A DNA stretch of 64,000 nt from an uncultured Oscillospiraceae bacterium (GCA_934466455.1 CAKSLF010000005.1:33261-97260); one strand, 5' to 3'. Counted from the first letter of the stretch, positions 3,687 through 44,518 are shown. Notes: a model not told the origin generated them from the letters alone. Translations and numbers: made by a program.

Positions 3687-4298
3687 ATGCTCAATAAACC
3701 GAGGGGAACCGTTTCCGCAACAAGCGACCCGTTTTTCAAAACGGTTATGGATTGCTTTCCGACAGAAATGAGCACGGGGCTTTATCCTGTCGGGCGGCTT
3801 GACATTGATACGGAGGGACTGCTTGTAATAACGGACGACGGCGAGCTTACCTTTAGGCTTACCCGCCCGGAATTCGGCTTTGTAAAGCGATATTTGTTTA
3901 TGGCGTTTGGGAGCCTCACCTCTGCCGGAAAAGAAAAAATCGAAATGGGCGGAGCTCTTTACGGAAACGGAAAAACCGCAAAGCCCGCCCGGATCGAGCA
4001 CCTTGAGCACGAAAGCGTAGCTGCGTGCTCAAAATACATTCCGGCGGAAAAGCTTGAGCACTGTATGAAAAATCCGGGCGGTGCGGTAAGTGTCGGAATA
4101 ATTGCCGTTACCGAGGGGCAGCGGCACGAGGTAAAGCTTTTGCTTAAAGGAGCGGGGTGCAGCGTATTTTATTTGAAAAGGCTTTCCGTGGGTGAAATAT
4201 ACCTTGATGAAAACCTTGCGCCGGGGGAATTTCGGGAATTTACCCCGGAGGAAAAGGCTCTTGCAGAGAAATACAGAAAAATTTGGATTGACCTGTAA
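3687..4298 (+). CDS. RsuA-like rRNA pseudouridine synthase, short form without the N-terminal S4 domain
   Basis: LNKPRG ... GRLDIDTEGLLVITDDGEL catalytic-Asp motif of the RsuA/RluB family. The start could be the TTG at about 3676 or the ATG at 3687. Confidence 0.75.
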   Translation: MLNKPRGTVSATSDPFFKTVMDCFPTEMSTGLYPVGRLDIDTEGLLVITDDGELTFRLTRPEFGFVKRYLFMAFGSLTSAGKEKIEMGGALYGNGKTAKPARIEHLEHESVAACSKYIPAEKLEHCMKNPGGAVSVGIIAVTEGQRHEVKLLLKGAGCSVFYLKRLSVGEIYLDENLAPGEFREFTPEEKALAEKYRKIWIDL

Positions 4299-8730: not shown

Positions 8731-9591
8731 ATGAGATACACAAAGGAGTGGCAGGATTACGAGCTTTTGGATTGCTCCGAAGGTGAACGCCTTGAACGCT
8801 GGGGAAATGTCGTGCTTATCCGTCCCGACCCTCAGGTTATATGGAATACGCCGAAGGAACATCCCCTTTGGCACAGGGCGGACGCAAGATATATCCGTTC
8901 AAAGGAGGGCGGCGGTCATTGGGAATGCCGCAAAAAGCTTCCGGAAAATTGGAACATCGGATATAGGGATTTGAAATTCAAAATAAGCCCAACCGGGTTT
9001 AAGCACACCGGGCTTTTTCCGGAGCAGGCGGTAAACTGGGATATGATGAGAGAAAAAATCGCCGGGGCGGGCAGAAGTATAAAGGTTCTCAACCTTTTTG
9101 CATATACCGGCGGAGCAACCCTTGCCGCAGCGTCGGCGGGGGCTTCCGTCTGCCATGTTGACGCAGCAAAGGGAATGGTGCATTGGGCAAGGGAAAATGC
9201 GGAGCTTTCCTCTCTTGCGGAAAAGCCCGTCCGCTGGATCGTTGACGACTGCGCAAAGTTTGTCGAAAGAGAAATTCGCCGGGGAAATACTTATGACGCA
9301 ATTATTATGGATCCCCCCTCTTATGGAAGAGGTCCCGGCGGCGAGGTTTGGAAGCTGGAGGATCAGATTTATGACCTTGTTAAGCTTTGTACGGGGGTCC
9401 TTTCCGACGATCCGCTTTTCTTTCTGCTTAATTCGTATACAACGGGGCTTTCCGCCTCTGCTATGGCGTATGTTCTCGGCGTAAATATGCAAAAATTCGG
9501 CGGAAAGGTTTCCGCCGAGGAAATCGGCTTGCCGGTAACCGCAAGCGGAATGGTGCTTCCTTGCGGAAGCAGCGCAATCTGGAGCAAATAA
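8731..9591 (+). CDS. class I SAM-dependent methyltransferase (RlmI/COG1092-like, no PUA domain)
   Basis: VLNLFAYTGGATLAAA SAM-binding motif I and the DAIIMDPPSY motif IV. Confidence 0.7.
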   Translation: MRYTKEWQDYELLDCSEGERLERWGNVVLIRPDPQVIWNTPKEHPLWHRADARYIRSKEGGGHWECRKKLPENWNIGYRDLKFKISPTGFKHTGLFPEQAVNWDMMREKIAGAGRSIKVLNLFAYTGGATLAAASAGASVCHVDAAKGMVHWARENAELSSLAEKPVRWIVDDCAKFVEREIRRGNTYDAIIMDPPSYGRGPGGEVWKLEDQIYDLVKLCTGVLSDDPLFFLLNSYTTGLSASAMAYVLGVNMQKFGGKVSAEEIGLPVTASGMVLPCGSSAIWSK

Positions 9592-9638
9592 TAAAACAAA
9601 GACAGTTTTTATAAACAAAAAAACGGGAGGCGGCAAAA

Positions 9639-10340
9639 ATGAAGGACCCGAAGGAATTTCTTGAAAAGGACAGGCTTTTGCACATTGATATGATAGACGC
9701 TCTGCTCGATAAAAAGACGGAGGTGCTCTATTCCGAGGAGGACGGAGTGCTTTTCCGCAGGGACGGCTGGCTTTATGAGCTTTCCGCCGAAACCCCGGAA
9801 GCAACGGAAAAAATCGCCGCACTTATGGAAAAAGGCAGGGACATCGTTGCTCATCAGTTTAAGTTTATTCCGAACATTTTTAATGTTACCGGGAAGATGG
9901 AAATGCTGCCCTGTATGCAGACCTCATATAACAAAGGTACTCCGGTAAAGCTTCCCGATACGGGAAAAATAACCTATCGCCGCCTTACAATGGAGGATCT
10001 CGACTTTGTATGCCGCACCTACCGCTACGGCGAAAACGATGTTAAGTATATAGGAAGCCGCATAAGTCACGGAATGATAGGCGCATTCGACGGAAAACGC
10101 TGCGTCGGCTTTATCGGCGAGCATAACGAAGGCTCCATGGGGCTTTTGGAGGTTATTCCGGAATATCGCAGAAAGGGAATTGCCACCGCTCTTGAGGGTA
10201 TGATGATAAACAAAAAGCTTAAAGAGGGCAGAATTCCGTACGACCATGTCGTCCTCGGAAACGACGCCTCCCTCGGCTTACAAAAAAGCCTCGGCATGGA
10301 TAAGGCGGAGGGCATTGTAACCTGGCTTTTTACAAAATAA
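9639..10340 (+). CDS. GNAT family N-acetyltransferase
   Basis: C-terminal acetyl-CoA binding region (GLLEVIPEYRRKGIATAL) typical of GNAT motif A. Confidence 0.6.
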   Translation: MKDPKEFLEKDRLLHIDMIDALLDKKTEVLYSEEDGVLFRRDGWLYELSAETPEATEKIAALMEKGRDIVAHQFKFIPNIFNVTGKMEMLPCMQTSYNKGTPVKLPDTGKITYRRLTMEDLDFVCRTYRYGENDVKYIGSRISHGMIGAFDGKRCVGFIGEHNEGSMGLLEVIPEYRRKGIATALEGMMINKKLKEGRIPYDHVVLGNDASLGLQKSLGMDKAEGIVTWLFTK

Positions 10341-20890: not shown

Positions 20891-23809
20891 ATGGTAGAAA
20901 ACATTAAATATAAAGTTGCCGATGTGGCAAAGGACCTTAAACTCCCGTTAAAGGATGTTATAGACACCCTTGGCGAGAAGTTTTCGGCAAAAAAAGCGCA
21001 GACGGCTCTTACGGAAGAAGAACTGAACTATGTTTTTGAGCATTATACTAAGGCAAAGGAAGTAACAAGCTTTGCTTCCTATTTTGCTATGGCAAATCAG
21101 CCAAAAGAGGAAGCTAAAGCGGAAGAGCCCAAAAAGGAAGAAAAGAAAACTGCACCCAAGGCGGAAAAGAAGCCTGCGGAAAAGCCTGCACCCAAGTCGG
21201 AGCAGAAGCCTGCGGAGAAACCCGCACCCAAGGCGGAAAAGAAGCCTGCGGAAAAGCCCGCACCCAAGGCAGAGCAGAAGCCTGCGGAGAAGCCCGCACC
21301 CAAGTCGGAGCAGAAGCCTGCGGAAAAGCCCATACCCAAGGCAGAGCAGAAGCCTGCGGAAAAGCCCATACCCAAGTCGGAGCAGAAGCCTGCGGAACGC
21401 TCGGTCCAGAAGCAGGAGCGCAGCGACAGACCGCAGAATAATCAACAGAACGGACAGAACCGTTTTGGCGATAAACCCCAGCAGGGCGAAAGAAGAAACG
21501 ACCGTTTCGGCGACAGACAGCAGAACAATCAGCAGAACGGACAGAACCGCTTTGGCGACAGACCCCAGCAGGGCGAAAGAAGAAACGACCGTTTCGGCGA
21601 CAGACCGCAGAATAATCAGCAGGGCGGACAGAGCCGTTTTGGCGACAGACCGCAGCAGAACGGGCAAAACCGCTTTGGCGATAAGCCCCAATTCCAGAAA
21701 AACGACCGCTTTGGCGGCGGATTTGATAAAGACAGCGACAACAACGGCGGTCACCGTCACGAGCCGAAAAAACCGGTTGAGCGCAAGCCCAGACCCGGTA
21801 ATCTTCCGCCGGCGGAAAAGCTTGCGGCAGGCACAGCCCATGTTGATATGAGTGCGGCGAACATCGAGCTTGATAAATACAATGAAAAGTATGAGCAGAT
21901 TGCGCCGTCCTCCTCTATGTCCGACAGTTATACCAATAAGCAGAAGCTTACTCAGCGTTCCAAACAGCAGGGCAAGCCGAAGCAGAGCAAAAAAGAGCAG
22001 GAACAGGCAAAGCTTAAAAAGCTTGAGATGGAGCGTCAACGCCGTCAGAAGCTTGAAATTACTCTTCCCGATGAAATAACCGTCGGCGACCTTGCTCTCA
22101 AGCTAAAGGTCACCTCTGCCGAAATTATCAAACGCCTTATGATGCAGGGCATGATGGTTTCCGTAAACGAAATGATAGATTACGATACAGCCGCCCTTGT
22201 TGCAATGGATATAGGCGCAAAGGTTGAGCACGAGGTTGTTGTTACGATAGAGGACCGCCTTATCGACGACAGCGAGGACGATGCGGGAAATCTTGTTCCC
22301 CGTGACCCGGTTGTCTGTGTTATGGGTCATGTTGACCACGGCAAAACCTCAATACTTGATGTTATCCGTCAGGCAAATGTCGCTGCGGGAGAAGCGGGCG
22401 GCATTACTCAGCATATCGGTGCATACAGAGTAAAAACCGAGGGCGGAAGATACATCACCTTCCTTGATACCCCCGGACACGAAGCATTTACCGCAATGCG
22501 TGCAAGAGGCGCACTTTGCACCGATATAGCAATTCTTGTTGTTGCGGCGGACGACGGCATTATGCCCCAGACCGTTGAAGCAATCAACCATGCAAAAGCA
22601 GCGAATGTTTCCATAATCGTTGCAATCAATAAAATTGATAAACCCGGCGCAAATGTCGAGAGAGTTATGGAGGGTCTTACCGAATACGGTCTTGTTCCCG
22701 AGGAATGGGGCGGCGATGTTATCTGCGTTCCCGTTTCCGCAAAGACTCACGAAAATATTCCGACCCTTCTCGAAATGGTTACTCTTGTTGCGGATGTTAA
22801 AGAGCTTAAAGCCAACCCCGACAGAATGGCAAAGGGAACCGTTATCGAATCCCGTCTTGATAAGGGCAGAGGTCCGGTTGCCACGGTTCTTGTACAAAAC
22901 GGAACTCTTCATACCGGCGATGTTGTAATTGCGGGAACCGCCGTCGGCAAGGTAAGAATTATGACCGACGATAAAGGCAACAAAGTTGAAACGGCAGGTC
23001 CCTCAATTCCTGTTGAAATAACCGGTCTTGACAGCGTTCCCACCGGCGGCGACACCTTTAACGCCGTTAAGGACGAAAAGCTTGCAAGAGAGCTTGTTGA
23101 ACAGCGTGAATATGAGGCAAAGCAGGAACAGTTTAAGGCATACCAGAAGGTAACTCTTGATAACCTCTTCAGCCAGATTGCGGAGGGAGAAATTAAAGAA
23201 CTGCCTATAATCGTAAAAGCCGATGTCCAGGGCTCCGTTGAGGCGGTAAAACAATCCCTTGAAAAGCTCTCTAACGATGAGGTTCATGTTAAGGTAATCC
23301 ACGGTGCGGTAGGCGCAGTAAACGAGTCCGATGTCATGCTTGCACAGGTTTCCAATGCAATTATAGTAGGCTTTAATGTCCGTCCGGATTCCACCGCCCG
23401 TGACAATGCCGCAAGAGAGGGCGTGGAAATTCGCCTCTATCGTGTAATCTACGACGCAATCGAGGAAATAAAAGCCGCAATGAACGGTATGCTTGCTCCT
23501 AAGTACCGTGATGTTGACCTCGGCAGAGCCGAGGTTCGCCAGGTATATAAAATCAGCAGCGTAGGAACCGTTGCAGGCTGCTATGTGCTCGAGGGCAAAA
23601 TTACAAGAAACGCAAATATCCGTGTTGTTCGTGACGGCATTATTATTGCCGACGATAAGCTCGACAGCCTTAAACGCTTTAAGGACGATGTTAAAGAGGT
23701 TGCCCAGGGCTATGAATGCGGTATGACCCTTACTAAGTTTAACGATATTAAAGAGGGCGATGTTTTTGAAGCGTATATCGTGGAGGAATATCGTGAAAAC
23801 GCCAACTGA
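20891..23809 (+). CDS. infB: translation initiation factor IF-2
   Basis: 972 aa. [10 protein letters not shown]1 motif, DTPGHEAF G3 motif and NKIDK G4 motif. The N-terminal region is extended by repeats. Confidence 0.95.
21123..21398 (+). repeat. intragenic tandem repeat of ~36 bp, about 7 copies, encoding the [16 protein letters not shown] repeat in the IF-2 N-terminus
   Basis: Direct reading of near-identical 36-bp units (aagcctgcggaaaagcccgcacccaaggcagagcag). Confidence 0.85.
21405..21700 (+). repeat. second intragenic repeat of ~90 bp, 3-4 copies, encoding the [29 protein letters not shown]-rich repeat of IF-2
   Basis: Direct reading of the nucleotide and translated repeats. Confidence 0.8.
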
Positions 23810-26144: not shown

Positions 26145-26185
26145 TTGAGCACGGAGCCGTGCTCAAATAAATCCCCTTTTCAAAA
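26145..26185. repeat. palindromic element GGGGATTTATTTGAGCACGGAGCCGTGCTCAAATAAATCCCC, a member of the GAGCAC-armed hairpin family
   Basis: 19-bp perfect inverted repeat. The same GAGCACGG/CCGTGCTC arms recur at 4003, 14611, 36006, 37010, 44490 and 63121. Confidence 0.7.
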
Positions 26186-35040: not shown

Positions 35041-35061
35041 TAATACTTTTTGGAGGTTAGG

Positions 35062-35517
35062 ATGCTTAAATTAAATGGCAAGATGGGAACAGTCAGCCAG
35101 CCCATCACATTTGACGGGGGAATTCTAATATCCGCAAAAGAGATTGCGGATATTCTTCGTAAATGTGCTGACGAGAACAGAACGGAGGTAGAAATTTCTG
35201 ACGATACAATTCACGACGGAGGTCTTTTCACCGGCAAGGACTATCCCTGCATTGTACTTAGACACCCAAATCCTCCGCAGGAGTATTTTTATCAGGTGTG
35301 GGTGATAAATGGGAATACGATAAATTTTTATTATTTTGGACGGAGCAAGGCTAATTATAAAGTTAATACCTACAACGAAAAGAAACAAGGAGGGATTTTT
35401 GACCAAATAGCTGCTTCCGTTATGGGAAGTGCCGAAATGGAGCTTCAGGTTGAACAGGAATGGCATAGGAAAGTGTTTGGGCTTTTTGATGCCGCAGTAG
35501 AGAAAGCAAGTTTTTAA
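35062..35517 (+). CDS. hypothetical protein (151 aa), no recognisable domain
   Basis: GGAGGT RBS 6 nt before the ATG. About 42% GC over the first 140 nt, against >50% in the flanking core genes. Confidence 0.6.
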   Translation: MLKLNGKMGTVSQPITFDGGILISAKEIADILRKCADENRTEVEISDDTIHDGGLFTGKDYPCIVLRHPNPPQEYFYQVWVINGNTINFYYFGRSKANYKVNTYNEKKQGGIFDQIAASVMGSAEMELQVEQEWHRKVFGLFDAAVEKASF

Positions 35518-35536
35518 TAGACTGGAGTGATTTCAG

Positions 35537-36004
35537 ATGAGCGATTACTATTGCAAATGCAAAAGCTGTGAGTACATAGACCCCTCGGAGAGAAGCGGGT
35601 ACAAATGGTACTGCACAAGCTACGGTTCGTACGAAGACCCGGACAAAATAAGAGAATGCCGCCGCTATAAGCAAAGCGGTTCTTCCGGCGGCTGTTATTT
35701 TACCTCGGCATGTGTGGAGGCAAAGGGCTTGCCCGATGATTGCCATGAGCTTACTGCGCTTCGGAAATTCCGTGATGAATATGTAGTAAAATGCAGTCAC
35801 GGCGAGGAAGACATCGCACATTATTATGCGGCTGCACCCAAGGTTGTCGAGAGAATTAACAAAAAAGAAAACGCAAAAGCCATTTGGGAAGAAGTATATA
35901 ACTCCATGGTTTTGCCCTGCGTAAAGCTTATTGACGAAAAACGCCTTGACGAGGCGTATACGCTTTATAAAGAAAAAAGCATGGAGCTTGAAACAGCGTA
36001 TTGA
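35537..36004 (+). CDS. hypothetical Cys-rich protein (155 aa) with an N-terminal CxCxxC ... C zinc-ribbon-like cluster
   Basis: YYCKCKSCEY ... WYCTSY ... CRRY ... GGCYFTSAC. Starts 20 nt after the upstream gene, so likely co-transcribed. Confidence 0.6.
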   Translation: MSDYYCKCKSCEYIDPSERSGYKWYCTSYGSYEDPDKIRECRRYKQSGSSGGCYFTSACVEAKGLPDDCHELTALRKFRDEYVVKCSHGEEDIAHYYAAAPKVVERINKKENAKAIWEEVYNSMVLPCVKLIDEKRLDEAYTLYKEKSMELETAY

Positions 36005-37846: not shown

Positions 37847-38617
37847 ATGAGCGTGCTTGAAATAAAAAATCTTCGGAAAAGCTTTGACGGGCAGGAGGTT
37901 CTCAAAGGCATTGACATTACTCTTGAAAAAGGCGATGTTCTTGCAATTATCGGACCCTCAGGCAACGGAAAAACAACTCTTCTGCGGTGCATAAATTTCC
38001 TTGAAACGCCGGATGGCGGAAGCATCAGCGTAAACGGAGAAAAAATTTTTGACGGAGAGGGCACAGCCGGAACGGAAGCGGAAATTCGCAAAAAAAGACT
38101 GCATTTTGGAATGGTATTTCAAAATTTTAATCTTTTTCCTCAGTATACTGCGCTCGAAAATGTTGCTCTTTCAAAAGAGCTTTTAGAAAGAGAAAGGCAG
38201 GGGCGCAGAGCCGACCGCCGAAAGATAAGAGCTGCCGCCGAGGCGGAGGCAAGGGAGCTTCTTGAAAGAGTGGGGCTTTCGGACAAGGCGGGGTTTTATC
38301 CGCACCAGCTTTCCGGCGGTCAGCAGCAGCGGGTTGCCATTGCAAGGGCACTTGCCCTTCGACCGGATGTGCTTTGCTTTGACGAACCGACCTCTGCTCT
38401 TGACCCGGAGCTTACCGGCGAGGTTTTGCGGGTGATAAAGTCACTTGAGGATGCAAAAACAACAATGATAATCGTGACCCACGAGATGTCTTTTGCACGG
38501 GAAGCAGCCACGAGGGTTATGTTTATGGAGGACGGCGGCGTGCTTGAGGAGGGAACGCCGAAGGAGATTTTTGAAAATCCCAAGAACCGCCGTGTTGCAG
38601 AATTTATAAATAGATAA
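37847..38617 (+). CDS. amino acid ABC transporter ATP-binding protein
   Basis: GPSGNGKTT Walker A, LSGGQQQRVAIARAL signature, LCFDEPTSALD Walker B. Confidence 0.9.
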   Translation: MSVLEIKNLRKSFDGQEVLKGIDITLEKGDVLAIIGPSGNGKTTLLRCINFLETPDGGSISVNGEKIFDGEGTAGTEAEIRKKRLHFGMVFQNFNLFPQYTALENVALSKELLERERQGRRADRRKIRAAAEAEARELLERVGLSDKAGFYPHQLSGGQQQRVAIARALALRPDVLCFDEPTSALDPELTGEVLRVIKSLEDAKTTMIIVTHEMSFAREAATRVMFMEDGGVLEEGTPKEIFENPKNRRVAEFINR

Positions 38618-38660
38618 AGAGGCGTATATGCGGCTTTGCGCATATACGCCTCTTGTTAAA

Positions 38661-39170
38661 ACTCGTTTTCGTGCTCAAGAAAAAGCCTGCGGTAGGCAAG
38701 TACGCCGGAAAGCTCCGTCCATTTGCGCCGTGCGGGGGGGATGGAATCCAAATCGTAGATTTTTTCGGCGGCGGAACAAGCAAAAAAAGGTAGGTGTGCG
38801 CCTTGCCGTACACCTACTTTTAATATCAAAACTCGTTTTCGTGCTCAAGAAAAAGCCTGCGGTAGGCAAGTACGCCGGAAAGCTCCGTCCATTTGCGCCG
38901 TGCGGGGGGGATGGAATCCAAATCGTAGATTTTTTCGGCGGCGGAACAAGCAAAAAAAGGTAGGTGTGCGCCTTGCCGTACACCTACTTTTAATATCAAA
39001 ACTCGTTTTCGTGCTCAAGAAAAAGCCTGCGGTAGGCAAGTACGCCGGAAAGCTCCGTCCACTTGCGCCGTGCGGGCGGGATGGAATCCAAATCGTAGAT
39101 TTTTGCGCCGGGCAGTGCAAGTAAAAACGGCGAATGGGTGGAGATGATAAGCTGACAACGGAAAAAGCGC
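38661..39170. repeat. tandem direct repeat, 3 units of 170 bp (38661-38830, 38831-39000, 39001-39170). The third unit forms the true 3' end of the downstream ATPase gene
   Basis: The string actcgttttcgtgctcaagaaaaagcctgcggtaggcaag occurs at 38661, 38831 and 39001. Units 1 and 2 are near-identical. Confidence 0.9.
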
Positions 39171-39838
39171 ACAGATTCCTCAAGAAACTCGGCAAGCTTT
39201 TGCTGATTTTCCGGCGAAAGGCTGTTTTCCGGCTCGTCAAGCAGATAAAGCGCATTTTCACGCACAGCATTTGTGAAAAAGGCAAGCGCGCTTTCGCCGT
39301 TGGAATTTTCCTTTATATTGCCGCCGAGGGTTTTGCGCACAAATTGAGAAACGGTGTTGCGGCGAACGCTGTTTTGCAGCTTTAGGTGCTCATAATCCTC
39401 CATGGTTTTGAAGGAATATTTTTTAAGCTTTTCTCTACGGTATTCCTCAAAAAGCTCCTCTCTGCGGCGGTCGATTCCGTCGTTCATACACCGAAGGTCA
39501 AGCAGAAAATCAAAAACATCGTCGCTTGTAACAATGCGGCTTTCCTTTGGGATCCTTCTCCCGTCGGATGAACAAAGCTCCACATAGTCATCGAAGAACG
39601 GGCTTTTGTTGAACGGAACGCCCCGGCGGATACAAAGCTTTTCCGCAATGACATTAAGTATGGTGCTTTTACCGCTTCCGTTCCCGCCGTAGAATATTGT
39701 TATCGGCTCAAACTCAAAACAGGGAAGATTTCTGTATGTAAACACGCCAAAAGGATAATAGTCGTTATAGCAGGTCATTTTTCCGCCGTAGCACTCCTCT
39801 TGTCCGGGCGAGGGAAAGAAAAATTTTTCGAGAAACAT
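38996..39838 (-). CDS. solo ABC-type/AAA_21-like ATPase (about 280 aa)
   Basis: GGNGSGKST Walker A, SNGESALAFF signature-like, LYLLDEPENSL Walker B, STHSP H-loop. No partner gene nearby. ATG start 8 nt after AAAGAGG. Confidence 0.75.
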   Translation of the reverse strand: MFLEKFFFPSPGQEECYGGKMTCYNDYYPFGVFTYRNLPCFEFEPITIFYGGNGSGKSTILNVIAEKLCIRRGVPFNKSPFFDDYVELCSSDGRRIPKESRIVTSDDVFDFLLDLRCMNDGIDRRREELFEEYRREKLKKYSFKTMEDYEHLKLQNSVRRNTVSQFVRKTLGGNIKENSNGESALAFFTNAVRENALYLLDEPENSLSPENQQKLAEFLEESVRFFRCQLIISTHSPFLLALPGAKIYDLDSIPPARRKWTELSGVLAYRRLFLEHENEF

Positions 39839-40220
39839 ATAAAACACCTCTTTATATATTTTTTTATTTTAACATTGTAATCTGTACTTTACAATAAAAA
39901 ATATTATATACCAACGCATAGAAATGCTTATGTTAGCCGTAAAAATGAAAGAAATCCGTCAAGCTGCACAAAAATACGAAGTAATTTTTATGCACAATGA
40001 CGGTATAAATTTGCTTTCCGAAAGTTTTTTAATAGTGCCGAAATTTCGGCATATTGCACTATGCGGGGGCTTTGAGTTTATGCATTATGACGAAAAACAG
40101 AAAAAGAGCCGGGTTAGGACTTTATATTTATTTTACAAACAGCAGTCTTTGAGCATAAAAATTATCTAAAATCAACAAAAAATATTACAAGTTTTTTACA
40201 AAGCGGTAAAAGCCAAAAAA

Positions 40221-44358: not shown

Positions 44359-44518
44359 TTTTTGCTCCGCATTCAAACAAAATAAATTACGGCTCCCCGA
44401 TAATAGGGGAGCTGTTTTCTTTATCAAGCAAAAAACCAAAAAGGCTGCGGGAACGATTTGTGAGCACGGAGCCTCGCCCAAAAAATATGTTTTGAGCACG
44501 GTGTCCGTGCTCAAAACA

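Follow-up and report, generated by a model that had tools for sequence, protein, structure and literature searches.

Bacterial variable-number tandem repeats (VNTRs), or minisatellites, such as the MIRU-type loci used for MLVA typing, are built of head-to-tail units of 100-200 bp. Their copy number varies among strains, their units evolve in concert, and they leave recombinant collapse products. Tandem segmental duplications change by unequal crossing-over. A repeated gene end can also be read as a set of silent cassettes, for which pilS/pilE and the orphan C-terminal cassettes of toxins are the analogues. Polymorphic toxin genes (Rhs, CdiA) have orphan C-terminal cassettes downstream; these are promoter-less 3' fragments located directly after the full gene, and their homology to it allows recombination into the expressed copy, as described in parts of PMC3482391. 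Another comparison is offered by anti-phage defence ATPases. PARIS AriA, Septu/retron Ec78 PtuA, Gabija GajA and OLD are AAA_21/AAA_15 proteins of roughly 460-580 aa with a Rad50/SMC-like ABC fold and a helical insertion between Walker A and the signature motif. Our literature search returned general work on defence and on polymorphic toxins only. Here we describe a locus that resembles each of these systems in part, namely a gene for an ATPase with the same fold and the same helical insertion, whose 3' end is repeated in tandem.

The locus is located in a window of 64,000 nucleotides (64 kb) from an uncultured Oscillospiraceae bacterium. Named IspH-S1 homologues, the nearest of them with 81-82% identity, likewise point to a probable gut Oscillospiraceae. 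The original prediction described a solo ATPase of about 280 aa on the minus strand with Walker A GGNGSGKST, Walker B LLDEPE and an STHSP motif, and all of these were found. The gene (Table 1) lies between two unrelated ABC-transporter operons, each with its own ATPase gene, and the promoter predicted for it corresponds to a promoter-like site recognised by consensus match only. The mechanical ORF (38996-39847, minus strand) begins at GTG 39847, but ATG 39838 is preferred as the start because an RBS, GAGGTG (39846-39851), is located 7 nt upstream and database gene calls give 280 aa. The protein scores 62.3 bits against Pfam AAA_21 (cut-off 27) and 54.9 bits against AAA_15 (cut-off 32.1). Five motifs, GGNGSGKS (residues 51-58), the signature-like SNGES (179-183), LLDEPE (199-204), the D-loop NSL (205-207) and THSP (234-237), are invariant or nearly so in a family alignment of 22 sequences, which contains about 80 invariant columns. 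The AlphaFold model (pLDDT 77) gives generic matches to the ATPase heads of ABC, Rad50, SMC and OLD proteins with TM-scores of 0.35-0.44. The C-terminal 37 residues, which are the repeated part, are confidently folded in the model and conserved in the family (KIYDLD...WTEL...AY..FF..H..EF).

The family comprises 249 clusters (50% identity) at E <= 1e-30, and its members are mostly ~285 aa long and found across Bacillota, with 51-58% identity across Bacillota families among the matches listed. A family of only this size speaks against a ubiquitous housekeeping ABC-F or transport ATPase, the alternative that the original prediction had set against its own reading. ABC-F identity was rejected (ribo_prot_ABC_F 45 bits against a cut-off of 380; a single ABC domain), and so was a transporter nucleotide-binding subunit, since all NCBIfam transporter models were far below cut-off and the flanking operons have their own ATPases. 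The protein is a soluble, chromosomal ABC/Rad50/OLD-type ATPase without a partner gene, and its stand-alone AAA_21 family of ~285 aa is conserved in Bacillota and uncharacterised. Within the species the gene is often broken. In one sub-lineage (L102-L111, on 11 contigs from different samples) codon E194 is a stop (GAA to TAA, window ~39257-39259), and this allele has lost, in addition, 1 nt from the CCCGCCC tract of the gene tail (window ~39074-39080); other members of the cluster are frameshifted at residues ~134-140 and ~253. This indicates that the gene is dispensable in the species. On one short contig (L091/P0003; OQVL01068600.1, 1112 nt) an SMC-like N-terminus (MYLKSIEVQGFKSF...) is fused at Walker A to the ATPase; this is probably a chimeric contig joined via the common P-loop sequence.

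Tandem Repeats Finder reported a single array at 38658-39111 with a period of 170, 2.7 copies, 98% matches and a score of 880. The units at 38658-38827 and 38828-38997 are 100% identical, and the partial third unit (38998-39111) is the true 3' end of the ATPase gene and matches the other units over their first ~114 nt only. We call the repeated coding part C, the spacer S and the closing terminator T. C is the final ~115 nt of the ATPase coding sequence, and S is a 56-nt spacer with an intrinsic-terminator hairpin, in which a stem of 8-12 bp is followed by seven U in gene sense. T serves both the ATPase gene and a convergent ABC gene. In the direction of the gene the order is gene-C1-TGA-S-C2-TGA-S-C3-TAA-T, so that the gene copy and the first orphan stop with TGA and the last orphan with TAA. 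C1 differs from C2/C3 at two synonymous sites and at two bases of the upstream boundary. The predicted triplication of the 3' end, 3 x 170 bp, thus holds in that the repeat is real, its period is 170 and there are three coding tails, two of them orphan C-terminal segments downstream of the gene as had been stated. However, there are only two spacers, and the array therefore amounts to 2.67 units rather than to a clean triplication. Scanning the window for Rfam families and tRNAs gave no hits.

Table 1. Features of the ATPase locus and its array (positions counted from the first nucleotide of the window)
Feature	Position	Strand	Remarks
CDS, stand-alone ABC-type (AAA_21/AAA_15) ATPase, 280 aa	38996..39838	-	stop TGA 38996-38998
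Promoter-like site of the ATPase gene	39866..39894	-	TTGTAA, 17-nt spacer, TAAAAT, TG before the second hexamer; consensus match only
C1, the gene's own repeat copy	38998..39112	-	encodes ...GAKIYDLDSIPPARRKWTELSGVLAYRRLFLEHENEF
S proximal, putative native intrinsic terminator of the ATPase gene	38943..38995	-	hairpin GTAGGTGT...ACACCTAC 38950-38991, then seven U; matches the gene-proximal terminator of L009
C2, orphan copy of the gene 3' end, stop TGA	38826..38942	-	without the gene 5' part and without RBS; downstream of terminator
S distal	38773..38825	-	100% identical to proximal S; hairpin 38780-38821
C3, terminal orphan, stop TAA	38656..38772	-	abuts T directly; the C-TAA-T junction closes the array in every allele of the species
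T, bidirectional terminator with 16-bp perfect stem	38617..38654	.	common to the convergent amino-acid ABC-transporter ATPase gene 37847-38617 (+)

The repeat also contains an over-represented motif, as predicted. The word GTGCTCAAG has 9 sites in the window against 0.32 expected, three of the nine being the repeat itself. It belongs to a wider word, CGTGCTCAA, found at 20 places, and 7 occurrences of CGTGCTCAAAA compare with 0.02 expected. The sites are spread over the window (e.g., 4003-4032, 14609, 26145-26166, 36274, 37034, 44492-44514, 56108, 59586) and are sometimes clustered. At three sites the word forms a hairpin, TTGAGCACGG..CCGTGCTCAA, and a similar hairpin is located downstream of the ATPase gene in the sister species L007. 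A common terminator stem, an uptake sequence and a Chi-like signal are all possibilities for this word. At 21152-21658 there are two more tandem arrays with 88-91% matches, one of 6.8 copies of 36 bp and one of 2.7 copies of 87 bp, which may encode repeats within a low-complexity stretch of a protein. A hypothetical gene of ~151-155 aa located about 3 kb from the ATPase array (window 35050-36004) shows presence/absence polymorphism: L001 has one such gene (9496-9963), and L002 (9665-10607) and the window have two. The two ORFs of the window are not paralogues.

The copy number differs among strains. Same-species loci, defined by a protein 97-100% identical to that of the window, came from several projects and assemblers, and the related contigs are from human (Hadza) and other gut metagenomes. 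By exact-protein look-up, the window's 280-aa protein is also present on other metagenome contigs, including L001, which has no extra unit and joins C1 straight to TAA-T, and L002, which has one extra unit. Among complete arrays, one C copy is present in L001, L097 and L101, two copies in L002, L005, L093, L098, L099, L100 and L102, and three in the window and L092; L003 has at least three, as its contig stops inside the third copy. The same protein occurs with different copy numbers (the window protein with 1, 2 and 3 copies, P0141 with 1 and 2). The count for the window is a lower bound, three or more: its two orphan units do not differ, and short-read assembly cannot tell how many identical units of 170 bp there are. 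A scan of JGI metagenomes with a conserved 26-mer of C gave one short contig only. The original prediction had raised slipped-strand instability and C-terminal variation; copy numbers of 1, 2, 3 or at least 3 within one species and the existence of recombinant C-termini agree with it. Comparison of the assembled alleles thus confirms the observation and shows instability at the population level. The locus has head-to-tail units, strain-to-strain differences in copy number and, by comparison of alleles, recombination or slippage between units, as VNTRs do.

The pattern of SNPs tells how the array changes. The two-copy alleles L099/L100 and the one-copy allele L101 encode one and the same protein, and the single tail of L101 has the gene-copy SNPs at positions 13 and 41, then the terminal-orphan SNP at position 109, and then TAA-T. 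With gene-copy SNPs at its 5' side and the orphan SNP with TAA-T at its 3' side, L101 is the exact crossover product expected from a two-copy L099/L100 allele. R269C is present both in the gene copy and in the neighbouring orphan of L092 and L094-L096 and is absent elsewhere, and I252T and R256G are borne by the orphan in some strains and by the expressed copy in others. Exchange at the upstream boundary was also observed in both directions: the gene copy of L010 (P0143) has the orphan-type boundary, G243A/A244E in the numbering of the SNP table, and an orphan of L098 has the gene-type boundary. In the numbering of the family alignment these boundary residues are G244, nearly invariant, and A245, invariant. 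Together, a collapse product, a spread mutation and two-way exchange show that unequal homologous recombination or slippage makes the array grow, shrink and become homogenised. As judged from the alleles, SNPs move both ways between the orphans and the expressed gene and occasionally change its C-terminus (I252T, R256G, R269C, G243A/A244E). Because the array starts inside the coding sequence, recombination can rewrite the last 37 residues, the stop codon and the terminator, and the same alleles indicate that it occasionally does so for the stop (TGA to TAA) and the terminator (S to T).

Comparison with sister species points to the origin of the array. In L006, L007/L008 and L009 the ATPase proteins are 72-76% identical to that of the window and the gene order is kept, namely an iron-type ABC substrate-binding gene, the ATPase gene and amino-acid ABC genes. 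All three sister species have a single tail with the stop TGA. The 62 nt after the L009 stop align with S over their full length, with a global score of 20 against 3.4 +/- 1.8 for shuffled sequences, and none of 2000 shuffles reached 20. Since S matches the L009 terminator and all three sister species stop with TGA, TGA-S is taken as the ancestral gene end and C-TAA-T as derived. No duplicated tail was found in 80 distant GTDB loci (48-58% identity, among the matches listed) or in the four sister loci, and therefore the duplication is lineage-specific. The ancestral order would have been gene-C-TGA-S-spacer-T, and the founding duplication would have put a second C between S and the shared T, giving C-S-C. 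Had C+S simply been duplicated in tandem, an S would follow the last C copy, and no allele has one there; the founding event could have been a direct insertion, or a tandem duplication of C+S followed by deletion of the last S. As the alleles show, unequal homologous recombination or replication slippage between the direct repeats of ~115 nt has since expanded the array to three or more C, as in the window, and has in other cases reduced it to one C with the stop TAA and with T as terminator.

The orphans are 95-100% identical to the gene copy, and those of the window encode the same amino acids over the common tail. Their mechanical ORFs of 57 aa begin at a TTG within the hairpin and have no Pfam match. 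Private changes are non-synonymous to synonymous in the ratio 4:2 in orphans and 1:5 in the gene, which is a trend only (one-sided p = 0.12, few SNPs) and as such agrees with orphans that decay neutrally and a gene under constraint. Transcription probably terminates at S and the orphans are presumably silent. Being downstream of the terminator, without start signals and with mainly non-synonymous changes, they appear to be inert pseudogene fragments. Multi-copy arrays are kept in most strains although collapse is irreversible; drift can account for this persistence, and selection in favour of the orphans may also play a part. Overall, we regard it as highly probable that the locus is a lineage-specific, VNTR-like array of the ATPase-gene tail C and its native terminator S, with inert orphans and recombination-driven change of copy number.

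Several other explanations of the array were considered. It is very improbable that a mis-traversed loop in the assembly graph inflated a single-copy locus. The two orphan units of the window are indeed 100% identical over 170 bp, and many related contigs end within the array (L003, L004, L010, L091 and L094-L096). However, C-S-C junctions occur in independent assemblies from several projects and assemblers, and copies that have mutually diverged at several positions give an unambiguous path, with three distinct copies in L092, three distinct copies and a 168-nt unit in L003, and two copies in L005. Moreover, single-copy alleles do not have S, and thus S cannot be produced by looping through single-copy sequence. 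A single true copy in the reads, which the original prediction had named as its refutation, therefore fails as an explanation. The absence of S from single-copy alleles could also recall a scar of a mobile element or of site-specific integration, in which the repeated tail would be a duplicated att site that flanks an element remnant, and the C-S-C topology does resemble attL-element-attR with a restored gene end. We give this little credence as well. The native terminator of the ATPase gene in L009 matches S and is equally far from the TGA stop, S has no match in the 64-kb window beyond its two array sites, the "element" would be only 56 nt long, and no integrase or recombinase is present among the genes called around the locus. 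In addition, single-copy alleles have the recombinant SNP patterns of homologous crossover and not precise site-specific junctions. A reading of programmed C-terminal variation, in which the orphans are silent cassettes that swap variant C-termini or a slippage-prone C7 tract into the dispensable ATPase, has more in its favour and is still quite unlikely. The orphan variants I252T, R256G and G243A/A244E (L010/P0143) are found in expressed copies of other strains, variation is concentrated in the DLDSIPPARRKW linker, a part that varies across the family too, the orphans of the window carry the C7 homopolymer, alleles frameshifted at this tract exist (P0148, P0130, L102), and at least one orphan is kept in most strains. 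On the other hand, identity of 95-100% leaves almost no stored diversity, and orphan-private changes look neutral. The orphan-type boundary looks damaging rather than adaptive, because it replaces the nearly invariant G244 and the invariant A245. Direct repeats collapse irreversibly, no recombinase is called within 6 kb on either side in L001/L002, and the arrangement was observed in one species only among more than 84 loci examined. A diversity-generating retroelement was rejected: the differences are C>T, T>C, G>C, C>G and G>A, occur in both directions and are not confined to adenine. Among Pfam annotations of the genes within 6 kb in L001/L002 there is no reverse transcriptase. Slightly less probable again than programmed variation is a selected contingency locus, in which silent 3' cassettes are retained for the recombination by which they tune or switch off a dispensable, possibly conflict-related ATPase. 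If this were true, the cassettes could supply variant C-termini or the slippage-prone C7 tract, and the retention of at least one orphan in most strains despite irreversible collapse would be accounted for.

The original prediction also framed the ATPase as a defence or abortive-infection protein whose partner gene might have been lost here. On such a reading the ATPase would be the core of an anti-phage system, alone or with its partner lost, and the repeat would be arms-race variation; we consider this unlikely. The Pfam AAA_21/AAA_15 matches are accompanied by matches to the PADLOC models of AriA, PtuA and MAD3 at E 1e-17 to 1e-10, the best fold matches include the ATPase domains of OLD nuclease, retron Eco8/Ec78 PtuA and GajA, pseudogenised alleles are common within the species, which is typical of accessory genes, and the genomic context of the gene differs across genera. 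However, the PADLOC matches are confined, within longer profiles, to the P-loop and to the segment from Walker B to the H-loop; the best of them (AriA) aligns residues 182-244 with profile positions 239-304 of 304, and its coordinates are those of the Pfam AAA_21 match. NCBIfam PtuA (NF041760) gives 32.4 bits against a cut-off of 500 and MAD3 34 against 420, and none of the NCBIfam models approaches its threshold; matches to PDB sequences are weak. PADLOC, NCBIfam, PDB sequence and fold searches gave no defence-specific match, but only generic ABC-ATPase similarity. PARIS AriA was rejected because there is no full-length match (about 460-550 aa against 280 aa) and the PDB match to AriA covers residues 37-66 only (E = 1.5e-4); no AriB (TOPRIM nuclease) adjoins the gene, whose neighbours are ABC-transporter genes and a small unannotated ORF. 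Septu/retron Ec78 PtuA was rejected by its score below cut-off and by the lack of a PtuB HNH neighbour at the locus and in 65 family loci. When the six nearest ORFs, within three positions of the gene, were clustered in the 65 analysable family loci from GTDB, no conserved partner was found, and the best neighbour cluster, of HTH proteins, was present in 8 of the 65 loci at mixed positions. The position between two transporter operons is kept in sister species, and sequence conservation (51-58% identity, about 80 invariant columns) is unusually high for a defence gene. Phage records hardly ever contain the family either (2 of 50,697), and it is rare on plasmids. Divergent from the ATPase gene there is an ORF of 81 aa (39924-40169, plus strand), which is 96-100% conserved in the species. 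It matches the sister species only in two different frames and has no Pfam or Rfam match. Without a Pfam match and frame-broken in sister species, it is probably not a partner, and instead of a gene the region may represent a non-coding leader that precedes the iron-type ABC-transporter operon (40318 onward).

The VNTR-like array has several practical consequences. Strains of this uncultured Oscillospiraceae species could be typed by the locus. The array is a frequent break point of contigs, and orphan fragments may be called as small genes. It is a clear natural case in which a partial gene duplication has become a recombination-driven repeat, and all intermediate states are present in public metagenomes: the ancestral single end in sister species, two, three and more copies, and collapsed recombinants in which both stop codon and terminator are new.

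Compared with the systems introduced at the outset, the ATPase differs from PARIS AriA, PtuA, GajA and OLD in its length of 280 aa, in having neither a nuclease domain nor an adjoining nuclease, in profile matches that are partial and below family cut-offs, and in a position kept among housekeeping transporter genes. The array is like the Rhs/CdiA cassettes in its promoter-less 3' fragments directly downstream of the full gene and in the homology that allows recombination into the expressed copy. It differs from them, as far as parts of PMC3482391 describe them, in that the orphans are near-identical, there are no immunity genes and the parent is an ATPase and not a toxin. The 170-bp units also have no further ORF with a match to a protein family, which sets them apart from orphan cassettes. 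No new mechanism and no new defence system is revealed; the array comes closest to a VNTR or minisatellite subject to unequal crossing-over, with which it has all the traits named above in common, and it is an ordinary repeat polymorphism. In contrast to the anonymous intergenic repeats of such loci, its unit is the 3' end of a functional gene together with its terminator, and this is the unusual aspect of the locus.
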